Source: Acidimicrobiia bacterium (GTDB lineage: Bacteria; Actinomycetota; Acidimicrobiia; Spongiisociales; JAENVV01). Taken from it: DNA of 53,181 nucleotides. Location of the stretch: the NCBI GenBank assembly GCA_041577335.1, contig JBFGJH010000017.1, forward strand, positions 1-53,181, given 5' to 3'. The notes below the pieces were generated by a model. The model saw only the letters and a list, made by a program, of their open reading frames with translations, was not told the origin of the DNA and did not search any database. Positions 2,932-26,296 of this stretch are shown here, piece after piece. Position numbers and translations under genes: made by a program. Within the stretch, counting starts at the first letter, position 1. Every line of letters starts with the position of its first letter.

Positions 2932-5562
2932 TCAGTTGCCGAGCGGCTCCAGCGAAGCGGCGAGGCGGATGATGTTGATCTCGTCCTCCGCACGGTGCAA
3001 GAAGGCGGCCATTTGGGCACGGGTGACGGTGTCGCTGGGGCAGTACTGGTCGGCCGTTGGCGGGTTGCAGCTCTTGGTGATGCCTGAGGTTCCCAGTTTG
3101 TTGATGTCTGCTTCGAACACCGAGGCGTTGTCGTCGGTGTACAGGTCGGCGTCGGCTCCTTCGGTGAGGCCGAGTGCTCTGACGATGAAGGCAGCCATTT
3201 GGGCGCGGGTGACCGATCCGCCTGGACAGAACTCGTCGTTGGTAGGTGGGTTGCAGCCCACCGTGATGCCGGCCCAGGCGAGCCATTCCACGTCTGCGAA
3301 GAAGGTGTTGTCGGACGGTACGTCTTCGAATCGGGCAACCGCGGGGATCTCGAAGACGTCGACAACGTTGATGGTGGCGGTGGCGGTGTCGCTGAGAGGT
3401 CCGTCTGAGACCGTCACGGCCAATTCGAAGGACGGCGTCGACTCGAAGTCCAGTGGGCCGGCAACGGCGATGTCACCGGTGGCGGAGTCGATGGCAAAGG
3501 CTCCCCCCGTATTCCCAGAGTCGATCGAATAGGTGACCGCGTCACCGTCTGGGTCGGTGGCCACCATTCTGCCGACGACCTCTCCCGCCGAGGCTGATTC
3601 GGGTACGGCGAAGGTTCCATCCTCGGCCTGGGGAGCCTCGTTGACCGCCAGGATATCGATCGTCACGTTTGCGATATCGGCGAGACCGCCGTCGGAGACC
3701 AGGATCGCCAGCAGGTATGAGGGCGTGGTCGCAAAGTCGAGGGGTCCTTGCACAACCAGCTCACCTGAGCTCGCATCGATCGAGAAGGCCCCACCCACAT
3801 TGCCCGAAGTGATCGCGAAGGTGAGAGGATCCATATTGGCATCTGAGGCCGACACTGTTCCGATGGTCGTTCCCGCACCGGCATCCTCCGCCACCTCGAA
3901 CGCGGCGTCGACGGCCACCGGAGCTTGAGCGGTCGCACATGATGGCTCCACGAAGTTGCCGATTCTCGACGACCACGTGCTCCCCGATGTCGCTGCGTAG
4001 TACTCCGTGGTGAACCAGAAGGTGCAGTCGTCGCTCGGATCCACCGTCATGGCGGAGTAGTCGCCCCAGCGATTCGAGCTGGTCTGCGAGCCGAGCCCGG
4101 CCTGCATCACGATCTCCGAACCGAGCGTTCCCAGTGGGTCGCCGGCCCGCCGTGTGGCATAGCGGATCGAGGGCGCCGAGCTGGAGGACGAGGCCGAATA
4201 CCCGAGCGCGATGTTGCCGGCTCGATCCATTGCGATCGATGACATCCACCGGTCGAGTCCGTCGGCGAGGTCGTGGGTTCCCTCCTGGTGGAGCGTCCAT
4301 GCTGCGCCTCCAACCGACCGCAGCTCGAACCAGCGGACTGCCGAGCCGACGTCGCCGGCGCCGCCGCCGACGGCGAACGTCCCGACCATCGACTCGTGGG
4401 TTCCGAAATTCCGATACGGCCATCGCCACATCGGCCATTCGCCGACCTGGTCGACCCTTTGGGCGGTGCCGGGCTGGCGAAGACATTCGAGATTGAAGAA
4501 CCCGCACGCCGTGTAGGTGAATGGGGCCACCGGGAGCGAGGCGACCAGGTCGAAGGTGGTATTGGCCGGTGTTCCCCAATCGACGTGGAAGTCGTGCACC
4601 TCGATCCGGTCGGCGCCGCCGTGGAAGCTGTTGTCTTTGAAGGTGTAGAAGTGGTTCGGCGTCCCGGCCGGTGGAGGTGTTGGCCCGTCGACGTCACTGG
4701 GAAGCAAGAAGTTGGTTTCGCCGTCGAACTTCTGATAATTCGCCGCGGCGCCCGAGAGCATGGCAGCGCGGTCGAACACGTACGCCGTGTAGGTGGATTC
4801 GTTGGCGGACATGTAGTAGCCGTCGGGCCAGACGCCGATCTTGAAATAGTCGGGAAACTCGGATACATCGAACTGGTACAACCAATACGACCCGGTGGCA
4901 TCGCCGGTGAGAGATACCGCGAAACACATGTGGTTCGGTTCGGCGAACTGCGTCAGCAACCATCGGTCGGCGAGCGGATCGTAGAGCGCGATGGGGTCTC
5001 CCCGATTGCCGGTACACACGCCCGTGGACCACAGGCTCCCCAAATCGAATGGGCCAACGAGGGACGTGCCGGCCTTGTCCCAGATCTGGACCTTGGTGGC
5101 ATTGACCATTTGGACGTAGTGATTGGGCCCCACATCGCCGTTGGTGTCGGGAGGGGTGCAACCAGAACATGCCACCGGGTTTCCGATCCCTTCGAAGCTG
5201 AGGCCGAGTTCGGGGCTCCGAGCCGCCGACAGTTCCCTGCCGATGTTGATCAGCGGATCCAGCGGCGTCTCTTGGCGATTCCACGTGCCGCGAGCTCCAC
5301 CGTCAGTCTCGCTTGCGAGCGGGTTGCGCCGAGGAGATGTCTCAACGGTGACCGCGGCGGGTCCCGACGGCGGCAGGTCGCGCAGCGGCTCACTCAGTGA
5401 AGGGCTGGTAGGGGTACCGAGTATCGGGCCGGAACCTTCGGGCGCCCGATCCTGGGCCGTGACGAGGGAGTCGGTGGGTGCGCCGGTCACGGCCGGCAGC
5501 ACCGTGACGCCTCCCGCCACCGTGAGTACGACCAGCGCGGACGACCAGATTCGATTGCGCAT
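2932..5562 (-). CDS. Secreted/cell-surface protein: signal peptide, large beta-rich domain, two cadherin-like repeats, C-terminal SLH-like repeats
   Basis: Hydrophobic N-terminus; PPDTNGDVGPNHYVQMVN...RWGDYS domain; cadherin motifs (A.D.D, FSIDASSGEL, LDFE); C-terminal GCNPP..FCP...VTRAQMAAF repeats; GGGAGG RBS before ATG 5562. Confidence 0.8.
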   Translation of the reverse strand: MRNRIWSSALVVLTVAGGVTVLPAVTGAPTDSLVTAQDRAPEGSGPILGTPTSPSLSEPLRDLPPSGPAAVTVETSPRRNPLASETDGGARGTWNRQETPLDPLINIGRELSAARSPELGLSFEGIGNPVACSGCTPPDTNGDVGPNHYVQMVNATKVQIWDKAGTSLVGPFDLGSLWSTGVCTGNRGDPIALYDPLADRWLLTQFAEPNHMCFAVSLTGDATGSYWLYQFDVSEFPDYFKIGVWPDGYYMSANESTYTAYVFDRAAMLSGAAANYQKFDGETNFLLPSDVDGPTPPPAGTPNHFYTFKDNSFHGGADRIEVHDFHVDWGTPANTTFDLVASLPVAPFTYTACGFFNLECLRQPGTAQRVDQVGEWPMWRWPYRNFGTHESMVGTFAVGGGAGDVGSAVRWFELRSVGGAAWTLHQEGTHDLADGLDRWMSSIAMDRAGNIALGYSASSSSSAPSIRYATRRAGDPLGTLGSEIVMQAGLGSQTSSNRWGDYSAMTVDPSDDCTFWFTTEYYAATSGSTWSSRIGNFVEPSCATAQAPVAVDAAFEVAEDAGAGTTIGTVSASDANMDPLTFAITSGNVGGAFSIDASSGELVVQGPLDFATTPSYLLAILVSDGGLADIANVTIDILAVNEAPQAEDGTFAVPESASAGEVVGRMVATDPDGDAVTYSIDSGNTGGAFAIDSATGDIAVAGPLDFESTPSFELAVTVSDGPLSDTATATINVVDVFEIPAVARFEDVPSDNTFFADVEWLAWAGITVGCNPPTNDEFCPGGSVTRAQMAAFIVRALGLTEGADADLYTDDNASVFEADINKLGTSGITKSCNPPTADQYCPSDTVTRAQMAAFLHRAEDEINIIRLAASLEPLGN

Positions 5563-23683: not shown

Positions 23684-23750
23684 GCGTCCTCGGGGCCCGC
23701 GACGGCCAACGAGGAGGTGATGGAGCTCCATCGGAGCTAAATTACAAATG

Positions 23751-23772
23751 TGTCACTTCGGTGGCGTATAGT
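23751..23772 (+). promoter_or_regulatory. PafBC/RecA-NDp-type promoter, leaderless
   Basis: TGTCAC-TTCGGTGGCG-TATAGT, 7 nt before ATG 23780. Confidence 0.75.
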
Positions 23773-23779
23773 CCCACTC

Positions 23780-24589
23780 ATGGCACTGGAACGCCTTTCA
23801 CCTAGCCGAGCGTCAGACTTCAAGCTCTGCCCGCAGCTCTTCAAATTCAGATCGATCGACAAGATCCCCGAACCCACCACGGTGCATCAAGCGCGGGGAA
23901 CAACTGCTCACCTCGCCCTGCAGAACCTTTACGACCTCCCGGCGAGCGAACGGACGGCCGATGCGCTCTACGACCTGTTCCGCGAGGCCTGGTCTGAGCT
24001 CCGCCACGACGAGGAGTTCTTGGACTTGTTCGAATCGATCGAAGAGGAGCGATCGTGGGGGCTCGAATCGATGGAACTGCTCCGTAACTATTTTGCGGTG
24101 GAGGATCCCACCAAGATCACGCCACTCGATCGTGAGCTCGACATGACGGAAGACCTGGACGGCGGCTTGGTCATTCGGGGAATCCTCGACCGGATCGATG
24201 AGCTTCCCAACGGCGACCTCGTGATACTCGACTACAAGACGGGGAAAGCTCCTCCAGAGCGCTACTCGCTGCCTGCATTCTTTGCGCTCAAGATCTACGC
24301 GCTTCTTGTTCGCCAACGGTTGGGCAAGACGCCGGTCGAGCTCCGCCTCATGTACCTGAACGGCCCGACTCTGTATCGGATTCCTGTCCACGATCGCCAG
24401 CTCGATGCGATGGACCAGCAGCTGCGAGCGCTGTGGCAGCGGATCAACCTCTGCATCGAAACGGACACGTTCCCTCCGCGTGTCAACAAGCTGTGCGACT
24501 GGTGCTCCTATCAGGACCGGTGTCCCGCGTTCGCCGAGGCCCAGTCACAAGCGGAGGCCGAAGAGCTGTCTGTCGCGGCCGTCGGCTGA
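23780..24589 (+). CDS. RecB-family PD-(D/E)xK exonuclease with 4-Cys (Fe-S) motif
   Basis: LSPSRASDFKLCP, RGILDRID, ILDYKTG, CDWCSYQDRCP. Confidence 0.9.
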   Translation: MALERLSPSRASDFKLCPQLFKFRSIDKIPEPTTVHQARGTTAHLALQNLYDLPASERTADALYDLFREAWSELRHDEEFLDLFESIEEERSWGLESMELLRNYFAVEDPTKITPLDRELDMTEDLDGGLVIRGILDRIDELPNGDLVILDYKTGKAPPERYSLPAFFALKIYALLVRQRLGKTPVELRLMYLNGPTLYRIPVHDRQLDAMDQQLRALWQRINLCIETDTFPPRVNKLCDWCSYQDRCPAFAEAQSQAEAEELSVAAVG

Positions 24590-24602
24590 GAAAAACCTGG
24601 GT

Positions 24603-24658
24603 TCGCGAATTCTTTCCATCAATCTGGCTTGCAGAGTGCCCGGCGGAACAAGTACTTT
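24603..24658 (+). promoter_or_regulatory. Promoter of structured RNA 1: TCGCGAA box, -35 TTGCAG, -10 TACTTT
   Basis: TCGCGAA 24603-24609, 19 nt, TTGCAG 24629-24634, 18 nt, TACTTT 24653-24658. Confidence 0.65.
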
Positions 24659-24664
24659 GATCTG

Positions 24665-24818
24665 ACCGTCGCAGGGGAGACCCTGAGGCGGATCGGTGAA
24701 GCTTCGGTTTCATCGAAGCGGCCAGGAGGTCGGGCTTTCGGGTCCGGAGGAATGGTCGCACGGAAGGCCCCGAGGGGACGAAGGTGAGAGCCGGAGTCTC
24801 AGCGGGGTCTTTCGCTTT
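24665..24818 (+). ncRNA. Putative structured ncRNA 1 (~155 nt, four hairpins)
   Basis: Consecutive stems capped by GAGA (24677), UUCG (24703), UUCG (24737) and GAGA (24786); G-U pairs fix the strand; last stem followed by a U-rich tail. Confidence 0.7.
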
Positions 24819-24952
24819 GCGTCGACCCTCGTAGGCTCGGGTCGAGCTGTGCCTCACCTTCGGCTCGGCTTCGTTCTGTTCGTGCGAGCCCTCCGTGCCG
24901 CCGCGCATCCGCCGCACCTCCCTGCTCGGAGATCCTGCTTCGTCGGCGACGC

Positions 24953-24983
24953 ATGACTCACGACTCATGACTCATGACTCATG
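24953..24983. repeat. Tandem heptamer repeat (ATGACTC) x~4.4
   Basis: ATGACTC ACGACTC ATGACTC ATGACTC ATG. Confidence 0.9.
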
Positions 24984-25084
24984 GGTCTTGGGTCGAACCT
25001 ACGGCCTGTCGATCGAGTTCCAACTCTTGGACGGGTTCCAAGGCGTGTCGTAAAAACGATCCCAAAGCGGGGTAATTCGAGGGG

Positions 25085-25159
25085 TCGCGAAAGTTTCCAA
25101 AATCTCGCGAAATCTACCTACGCTCTGAGCTTGATCCCGGGATGCGGCTGTTCTACTTT
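25085..25159 (+). promoter_or_regulatory. Promoter of structured RNA 2: two TCGCGAA boxes, -35 TTGATC, -10 TACTTT
   Basis: TCGCGAA 25085-25091 and 25105-25111, 19 nt, TTGATC 25131-25136, 17 nt, TACTTT 25154-25159. Confidence 0.7.
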
Positions 25160-25166
25160 CCTACTT

Positions 25167-25660
25167 GTCCGGAAGGGGAGACCCAGAAGGAGGCAGGTGG
25201 AAGCCAAAACGGGTTCGCTCGGGATGGTGGAAGTCTGGCCTCGGTGGAAGCCGGCGCCTTCGGGCGACGGGGGAAGTCGGGGAGAATGGATTCTTCGGAA
25301 TCCAGCCCGCTGGCCAGAGATGGTCAGCACGGCGGACGGAGTCGGTGCCCTTCGGGGTAGTGGATCCAGAAGCCCCGGCCTTCGGGTCGGACGCCGAAAG
25401 CAGGGGAATCCTTCGGGAATTCCATGCGGACGGCAGGGGTCTTGGAGACAAGATCTCGCCGGCGAAGAGGTGAGAGCCTCAGAACCGGCAGCGGAGCTCA
25501 ACCCGAGAGGGGATCGAGCGCCGGCTCGGAACAGCCCTCGGGCTGGTACGGGCAAAATGCCCGGTCAGGGGACGACGCCTTCGGGCGGAGAAACCGGCAG
25601 GGTTTGAGAGCCCCGAGAGGGTGGACGCTTCGGCAGATACTCCCTCGGGGTTTCTCGCGT
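25167..25660 (+). ncRNA. Putative large structured ncRNA 2 (~490 nt, more than 12 hairpins)
   Basis: Eight UUCG-capped, one CUCG-capped and five GAGA-capped stems with purine-rich internal loops; final long stem 25606-25656; no credible protein in any frame. Confidence 0.78.
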
Positions 25661-25702
25661 CTGGGGGGTTGATCGAGCGCTCTCCCCGCTAGATTCCTAG
25701 CC

Positions 25703-26296
25703 ATGGGATTTCCCGAACGACACCTCAGCGACAATGAGGAAATCGTCCGACAATTCCGTCCCCATTGGAAAGTCCTCCTCGGCTCGATCATTCTGTTCGA
25801 CGCCATCATGGCGATCGGGATCCTGATCGGTGTGTTCACGAGCCTCACTACCTGGTTGCCGATCCTCATCGCGTTCGGTGTCGGACTGGTCGTCATCGCA
25901 CGCCCGATCGTCGATTGGATGTTCACGCTCTATGTCATCACCTCCGAGCGGGTGATCGTGCGATCGGGATGGCTCAGTAGAAGCGGCAAGGAGATCCCTC
26001 TCGAGGTGATCAACGATGTGGCATTCGACCAAACGGTGGGCGAGCGCTTCTTCCGGTCCGGTGATCTGCTCATCGAGAGTGCCGGCGAATACGGCCAGAG
26101 CCGGTATAGCGACATTCCTCACCCTGAGGAGGTCCAGGCCGTGATCTATGAGCTGCGCGAGGATCGCATTGCCGCGTTGAACACGGGCCGATCGCCGGCC
26201 GATGACTTGGCCACTCTTGCCGAGCTGCACCGGCAGGGCTCGCTGACCGACGAAGAGTTCGCCGACAAGAAGCGCAAACTGCTCGACGAGATCTGA
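25703..26296 (+). CDS. Membrane protein with bacterial PH (bPH_2) domain and C-terminal SHOCT domain
   Basis: Two TM helices; YVITSERVIVRSGWLSR, GDLLIESAG; LAELHRQGSLTDEEFADKKRKLL. Confidence 0.88.
   Translation: MGFPERHLSDNEEIVRQFRPHWKVLLGSIILFDAIMAIGILIGVFTSLTTWLPILIAFGVGLVVIARPIVDWMFTLYVITSERVIVRSGWLSRSGKEIPLEVINDVAFDQTVGERFFRSGDLLIESAGEYGQSRYSDIPHPEEVQAVIYELREDRIAALNTGRSPADDLATLAELHRQGSLTDEEFADKKRKLLDEI

Follow-up and report, generated by a model that had tools for sequence, protein, structure and literature searches.

A compact four-hairpin RNA gene of Acidimicrobiia as the local member of an order-wide modular class of structured RNAs

Among the structured and sibling RNAs of bacteria, the CsrB/CsrC and RsmX/Y/Z decoys are sibling RNAs with a variable number of hairpins which act by titrating a protein, OmrA/B and PrrF1/2 are examples of sibling small RNAs, and the OLE RNA is a highly structured molecule whose gene lies beside that of its membrane-protein partner OapA. 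The Ms1 RNA is actinobacterial (PMC4191392, PMC9130861) and, in the accessible parts of its descriptions, appears as an abundant, stand-alone structured RNA of Actinobacteria with an end of the rho-independent type and a long hairpin with a central bubble as its defining feature (PMC4191392), located in synteny with genes for an oxidoreductase and a HAD-IB hydrolase (PMC9130861). No description of an Acidimicrobiia-specific regulatory RNA was found in the accessible portions of the literature under the names Acidimicrobiia, Acidimicrobiales and Microthrix.

The locus described here lies in a 53,181-nt stretch of DNA from an Acidimicrobiia bacterium, analysed in full and hereafter called the window, in which two RNA genes are located between a nuclease gene and a membrane protein gene, the latter being followed by a gene for a YbaK-type tRNA-editing domain protein. 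The features are, in order of position:

23750..24589, co-directional with the RNAs: PDDEXK_1 nuclease gene
24602..24610, plus strand: box TTCGCGAAT (motif CGCGAAW), about 20 nt upstream of the small-RNA −35
24629..24658, plus strand: putative promoter of the small RNA, −35 TTGCAG at 24629-24634, 18-nt spacer, −10 TACTTT at 24653-24658
24664..24818, plus strand: small RNA of about 155 nt, from the fold and an R2 model match at 24664-24817 (114.9 bits), with predicted ends
24666..24691, plus strand: H1, 10-bp stem with one mismatch and a GAGA (GNRA) loop at 24678-24681, closed by G-C
24693..24716, plus strand: H2, 10-bp stem with a UUCG loop
24718..24759, plus strand: H3, lower stem, 5x5 purine internal loop GGAGG/AGGAA, upper stem, UUCG loop
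24761..24814, plus strand: H4, long 3′ hairpin CCCCG-AG-GGGAC...GUCUC-AG-CGGGG with a GAGA loop
25084..25159, plus strand: large-RNA promoter, boxes GTCGCGAAA at 25084-25092 and CTCGCGAAA at 25104-25112, −35 TTGATC at 25131-25136, −10 TACTTT at 25154-25159
25166..25659, plus strand: paralogous large RNA, about 495 nt long, with many tetraloop hairpins (fold −254 kcal/mol, z −4.09)
25703..26296, downstream of the RNAs on the same strand: bPH_2 + SHOCT membrane protein gene

The minimum free energy fold of 24660-24825 on the plus strand consists of the four hairpins H1-H4, joined by 1-nt linkers and followed by GCUUU; the four hairpins which a preliminary description had placed at 24665-24818 are thus borne out by both the sequence and the fold. 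The energy of −89.5 kcal/mol compares with a mean of −69.0 kcal/mol in shuffled sequences (z −4.59, with none of 200 shuffles equal), while the reverse complement gives z +0.42 and is equalled or bettered by 130 of 200 shuffles, so that the fold signal is specific to the plus strand. The stretch 24664-24818 (plus strand) is best explained as a separate gene whose product, about 155 nt long, is a compact and very stable small RNA; its fold and strand are strongly supported. Directly after the small-RNA tail, at 24822-24845, lies a perfect 7-bp inverted repeat TCGACCC-N10-GGGTCGA, which is not present at that place in the same-genus genome G001 and could be a second terminator hairpin or a part of the transcript.

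The preliminary description had named covariation as a check on the fold, and compensatory changes are indeed found at 41 of the 54 pairs when the window's minimum free energy structure is laid on a MAFFT alignment of 43 sequences, composed of the 39 small units described below and four small RNAs of the window's family. The alignment is colinear with the window's small RNA, and 76.6% of its cells are paired. The double changes occupy 271 cells, compared with 129.5 ± 11.6 in shuffles, none of 500 of which reaches 271, and with at most 154 when the pairing partners are slid; the window's family alone shows covariation at 15 of 54 pairs (0/500 shuffles). Since the sequences of one order are related, these shuffle controls overstate the significance. 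Among the individual hairpins, H1 covaries at 9 of 10 pairs with 86% of cells paired, and H3 at all 6 pairs of the lower stem and 3 of 4 in the upper one, its internal loop being GGGAGA/GGAGU in most orthologues. H2 has double changes at 9 of 10 pairs and only 46% of cells paired in the MAFFT alignment, which is due to register shifts and misalignment, each sequence folding an H2 of its own. Finally, H4 covaries at 9 of 17 pairs with 86% of cells paired, and its CCCCGAG...CGGGG is invariant in the 43 sequences; H4 is a diverged form of the 3′ element of the family.

No family of Rfam 15 matches the small RNA, which settles a check that the preliminary description had proposed: at gathering thresholds the whole window is without matches, the E-value mode over 24500-25800 returned five irrelevant weak ones (best E 0.11), and there were none in 15 loci with relatives. 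When 24600-25700 was compared by BLAST with 61 relatives, the small RNA was recovered from G001 and G004 alone and the 3′ hairpin of the large RNA (25611-25659) from 43 of the 61, often as two or three copies within about 1 kb; searched for a second copy of the small RNA, the window's genome (G000) returned the locus itself and nothing else. Searches with models extend this range. A model built from three small RNAs (R1) matches 17 of the 22 genomes of the window's family, with clear orthologues in four genera and a 34-nt insertion in H1 in all 8 genomes of genus g2. A second model, R2, built from the 43-row alignment and applied at E <= 1e-6 to genomes at least 94% complete, matches 71 of the 81 genomes of the window's order, usually twice per genome and up to seven times, and the window's small RNA aligns to it in full length. 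Among public genome contigs, at least 134 stretches carry the 3′-hairpin pattern, and the titles listed are with few exceptions those of Acidimicrobiia or Actinomycetota metagenome-assembled genomes. Within the class, the pattern is present in 96 of the 401 genomes, nearly all of which belong to the window's order (8/9 in family f1, 21/25 in f2, 42/48 in f4 with the unpublished genome G289, used for no other result, among the positives, 3/3 in f6, 5/5 in f7, 10/12 in f10, 2/5 in f11 and 0/2 in f12); about five matches in the 401 genomes fall outside the order and look like chance. Viral contigs gave no match to the pattern, and the RNA family was not found with the probes used upstream of PH homologues in 16 genomes of other orders. 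That the small RNA is the local orthologue of an order-wide Acidimicrobiia class, and a paralogue of the RNA of about 500 nt beside it, is strongly supported.

Two peculiarities of the distribution may be mentioned. In family f7 (G430:C7:121787-128367; G428; G434) there are five to seven R2 matches, some of them with the same score and about 950 nt or 5 kb apart, which points to local amplification of the RNA genes. Contigs labelled Acidobacteriota (L085, L105, L123, L126, L143), Faecalibacterium (L098, L116) or Hyphomicrobium (L118) likewise match the 3′ pattern; L105, L123 and L126 carry complete small-RNA units, L126 also with a nuclease gene, which makes the taxon labels or the binning look doubtful.

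The large RNA starts about 350 nt downstream of the small one, begins with a GGGGAGACCC hairpin and ends with the canonical 3′ element at 25611-25659. Both RNA genes have a CGCGAA box or boxes and −35 and −10 elements at corresponding distances, and both RNAs open with a GNRA-capped hairpin and have a long one on the 3′ side. The words which the preliminary description had seen in both RNAs are borne out by counts: AGGTGAGAGCC has two copies in the window (24782-24792 and 25468-25478; 0.02 expected), capping one hairpin in each RNA, and GGGGAGACCC has three (24674, 25175 and 4994-5003 on the minus strand; 0.32 expected), the last of which lies far from the RNA genes. The same-genus orthologue in G001 has GGCUUCGGCC where the window has AGGTGAGAGCC, which is thus not a feature of the family, and exchange between the paralogues is a possible origin of its two copies. 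As to the ends that the RNAs had been said to have in common, the claim stands for the 5′ side, where the first 40 nt or so align better than 499 of 500 shuffles, and falls for the 3′ side when judged by sequence alone, where 49 of 500 shuffles do as well; the 3′ ends of this pair are unalike because H4 has diverged in the window's family. The small RNA lacks the exact canonical 3′ pattern CCCCGAGAGGG...CUCGGGG, and the single match in G000 is the large RNA. Models made from small RNAs only nevertheless recognize the 3′ part of the large RNA, R1 with 29.7 bits (E 6e-4) and R2 with 82.1 bits. The small RNA, regarded at first as a minimal paralogue, and the large RNA are indeed members of a single family, but the small one is not merely a reduced copy of the other and forms a conserved class of its own. 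The spacer between the two genes contains about four copies of heptamer repeats CATGACT/CTCATGA at 24952-24984, and a TGACTCA-rich stretch resembling them lies upstream of the boxes of the small-RNA unit in L074.

The construction of the family is apparent from 109 loci with the 3′ hairpin, which, parsed from the box promoter to the 3′ hairpin, gave 114 distinct units: one of 116 nt, 39 of 149-175 nt, 21 of 200-300 nt, 40 of 300-500 nt and 13 longer, with a maximum of 831 nt. Longer units have more hairpins (r = 0.97), each of them adding about 37 nt, and the earlier idea of one modular family with a variable hairpin number therefore holds. Of the small units, 37 of 39 fold into four hairpins, the two exceptions, of 175 nt, having five; H1 is capped by a GNRA loop in 36 of the 39, and H2 by GAGA in 24 and by UUCG in 11. 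The 114 units together have 995 predicted hairpin loops, of which 400 are UNCG-like and 368 GNRA (768, or 77%), the linkers are mostly 1-2 nt long, and bulges and internal loops are A/G-rich. Almost all bases of the small RNA are paired or belong to UNCG/GNRA loops, no conserved unpaired stretch exceeds 2 nt in the 43 sequences, and outside H4 the positions conserved to at least 90% are isolated. The 3′ hairpin is the most conserved part, its sequence being invariant across paralogues and genera, which suggests recognition by a protein. The CGAGAGG hairpins were also compared with the sarcin-ricin loop and the likeness was dismissed, only 7 nt being common and the flanking motif absent. A second subtype of the small RNA, in 13 of the 43 sequences (L077, L086, L095, L097, L102, L104, L123, L126, L132, L133, L148, L015 and L030), has the purine loop and UUCG of H3 replaced by a hairpin with an exactly conserved GGGGGCCCGCUUUCC; the conserved loop bases hint at a specific ligand.

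This architecture bears on the mode of action. A trans-acting RNA that pairs with its targets, as one of a sibling pair or array acting antisense through the GGAG-rich loop of H3 or through loop nucleotides, would agree with the stand-alone promoter and terminator, both putative, with the tandem paralogues, which recall those of sibling small RNAs, and with the Shine-Dalgarno-like GGAG words conserved on both sides of the H3 internal loop. Such pairing is nonetheless unlikely, as it would have to proceed without a conserved unpaired stretch of seed length, from linkers of 1-2 nt and from loops most of which are tetraloops of kinds poor at pairing. The lack of such a stretch, the stable tetraloops and the invariant 3′ hairpin together argue for recognition of the shape and of the 3′ hairpin by a protein, and against seed pairing.

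Both RNA genes and their orthologues are preceded by CGCGAAW boxes, then TTGNNN and, 17-18 nt on, TACTTT or TACGTT. The small RNA has one box, the large RNA two, 20 nt apart, and most other units also two, and the promoter position is kept in G001, in G004 and in units across the order. A consensus promoter scan and a terminator scan called nothing at the RNA genes, and the assignments consequently rest on positional conservation. From this layout, the small RNA would start at 24664/24665, about 7 nt after the −10 TACTTT, and would end after the H4 tail UCUUUCGCUUU; H4 is probably its terminator, with a tail that does not reach the rule of the terminator scan (5 T in 8). The boxes are presumably bound by a transcription factor. 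Box pairs spaced by 20 nt are rare and, in four near-complete genomes, found for the most part at the RNA genes: in 2 of 2 cases in G035, 2 of 3 in G045 and 3 of 6 in G310, and in G050 the sole non-repeat match to such a pair is at the RNA gene. CGCGAA boxes also occur singly: one precedes rpsF, and others are in the vicinity of ftsZ and lexA-like promoters. At rpsF, the gene for ribosomal protein S6 (G000:C32, about 26195 on the minus strand, locus L203), a single CGCGAAAT box is followed after about 24 nt by a −35-like TTGGGC, which repeats the layout of the RNA genes, and the site is without an Rfam match. On C54, a ribonucleotide reductase gene that has NrdR-like boxes is preceded by a box pair, probably by chance, and the boxes at scattered promoters gave no CGCGAA regulon.

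The small RNA of the window has the PDDEXK_1 nuclease gene as its neighbour and the bPH_2-SHOCT gene downstream, as in the family. With flanks of 1.2-1.5 kb, the nuclease gene is present in 60 of the 109 loci, in 57 upstream of the RNA and in 55 on the opposite strand, and the PH gene in 48, in 45 of them downstream on the same strand; both neighbours are found in 25 loci and neither in 26. A nuclease gene co-directional with the RNAs, as in the window and G001, is a rare arrangement, and set against the divergent one in 55 of 60 loci it indicates that the window's genus carries an inversion. Of 101 genomes of the class, 94 have a PH homologue; in 16 genomes of other orders, the 2 kb preceding the homologue contain no nuclease gene and no plus-strand box pairs. 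A GAF histidine kinase about 3.5 kb away was considered as a partner or regulator and rejected, nothing linking it to the RNA.

The arrangement could be taken to mean that the small RNA is a cis-acting leader or attenuator, controlling the bPH_2-SHOCT gene or the large RNA by regulated termination, given that the array is upstream of and co-directional with the PH gene in nearly all loci that have one and that CCCGAGAGGG could form an alternative mini-hairpin. Such a role is very improbable: another promoter and RNA intervene between the small RNA and the PH gene, G027 and G038 have the array on one contig and the PH gene on another, and in G010 the small RNA is 16 kb away from the large one, which also argues that the two RNAs are independent units. 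Moreover, the PH gene has a −10-like TAGATT of its own at 25690-25695, 7 nt before the ATG at 25703, which suggests a leaderless mRNA with its own promoter; a −35-like TTGATC lies only 15 nt upstream of that −10. Still harder to maintain is that the region is a DNA-level repeat, REP-like or a remnant of a mobile element, or a protein-coding stretch, for which the several copies per genome, with up to 7 R2 matches in some, and the long ORFs overlapping the region might speak. The fold is strand-specific, with G-U pairs on the plus strand only, compensatory changes are present, the synteny is recurrent, even if partial, and viral contigs have no matches; the ORFs overlapping the RNAs are without Pfam match and the orthologues have indels that are not multiples of three and break the frame, which together mark the RNA genes as not coding. 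This explanation is largely refuted.

Some evidence of expression comes from four runs labelled metatranscriptomic, which were mapped on 24400-25900 as contigs, not reads. The contigs reach depths of up to 23,700 and are confined to 24683-24774 and 25176-25661; with likeness at 90%, those stemming from relatives map to the most conserved parts only, and the contigs carry no ends or strand. Inside the large RNA, X17 and X18 have one contig each (210-220 nt, one mismatch), and X20 and X19 have short contigs that reach the highest depths. Expression of the small RNA is represented by a single contig of X19, a run flagged 'RNA? (probably DNA)', which is 115 nt long, adapter-flanked and of depth 231, and the 6 mismatches in the 92 nt of 24683-24774 show that it stems from a relative. 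The flanking genes and the spacer (24400-24654, 24808-25164 and 25675-25900) are without contigs, which is no proof of silence. Within these limits, the pattern fits abundant, discrete RNAs.

Taken together, the small RNA is best read as a stand-alone, order-wide gene that is driven by a factor through the boxes and serves as a protein-binding decoy or scaffold, a reading to which we assign a probability of about 0.5; the decoy or scaffold role under a dedicated factor is our favoured guess. A factor binding the CGCGAA boxes would drive transcription starting about 7 nt after the TACTTT −10 and ending at the conserved 3′ hairpin, the RNA would then act as an abundant decoy or scaffold for a protein and not by base-pairing, and paralogues with more hairpins would offer more binding modules. 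A broader model, in which one actinobacterial order possesses a new regulatory system where a dedicated factor acts via CGCGAA direct repeats on one to seven 'beads-on-a-string' RNAs whose tetraloop hairpins and invariant 3′ hairpin would titrate or scaffold a protein, with the RNA of about 155 nt as the conserved core member, is possible and can be offered only tentatively. New here are the order-wide four-hairpin class, the covariation, the size spectrum, the distribution of the box pairs and the contig evidence. Soils, sediments, sea water and wastewater all harbour abundant Acidimicrobiia, which are almost entirely uncultured, and an RNA family that is strongly conserved, has a promoter motif of its own and is apparently very abundant provides a handle on their regulation. 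The construction is also unusual among known bacterial RNAs, being a chain of UNCG/GNRA-capped hairpins that varies in number between paralogues and ends in a hairpin conserved in sequence. To our knowledge the phylum lacks Hfq, and a protein decoy or scaffold would, if real, be a new case of such regulatory logic there.

Among the known systems, the 6S RNA model RF00013 gave no match when run on G000 and on 61 genomes of the class, and no long helix with a central bubble is present in the fold, so that identity with 6S RNA was rejected; as the model rarely finds actinobacterial RNAs, its silence says little and is uninformative about a complementary distribution. An RNA that binds RNA polymerase, filling the 6S/Ms1 role in a lineage where neither is detectable, would share with the small RNA an abundant, structured product with its own, putative promoter and terminator, and the silence of RF00013 would leave the niche open, weak as that indication is. 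The small RNA resembles Ms1, likewise actinobacterial, in being an apparently abundant stand-alone structured RNA (PMC4191392). As far as the accessible parts of the Ms1 descriptions go, however, neither fold nor flanks fit, which sets it apart from Ms1: in place of one long hairpin with a central bubble it has a row of four short ones (PMC4191392), and in place of the oxidoreductase and HAD-IB hydrolase genes it is flanked by those for the nuclease and the PH protein (PMC9130861). A polymerase-binding role is accordingly improbable. The protein decoy or scaffold favoured above has its nearest parallel in the CsrB/Rsm RNAs: these too are siblings with a variable hairpin number, and their promoters, each with a conserved upstream site, and terminators correspond to the putative ones here. 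The difference lies in the loops, which in the present family are UNCG-like or GNRA and not GGA, the GGAA loop occurring in 4 of 995 hairpins, and there is no sequence or Rfam match between them and the small RNA; with CsrA (PF02599) not found in G000, a genome 90.75% complete, and GGA loops nearly absent, identity with the CsrB/Rsm decoys was rejected. The OLE RNA is similar in that a structured RNA gene is habitually found beside a conserved membrane-protein gene, yet sequence, size and fold are all unlike, and adjacency to the PH gene is not universal here. Should the broader model of a dedicated factor and a titrated or scaffolded protein be true, the family would correspond in function to the Gac/Rsm or 6S/Ms1 systems while resting on a different RNA architecture.
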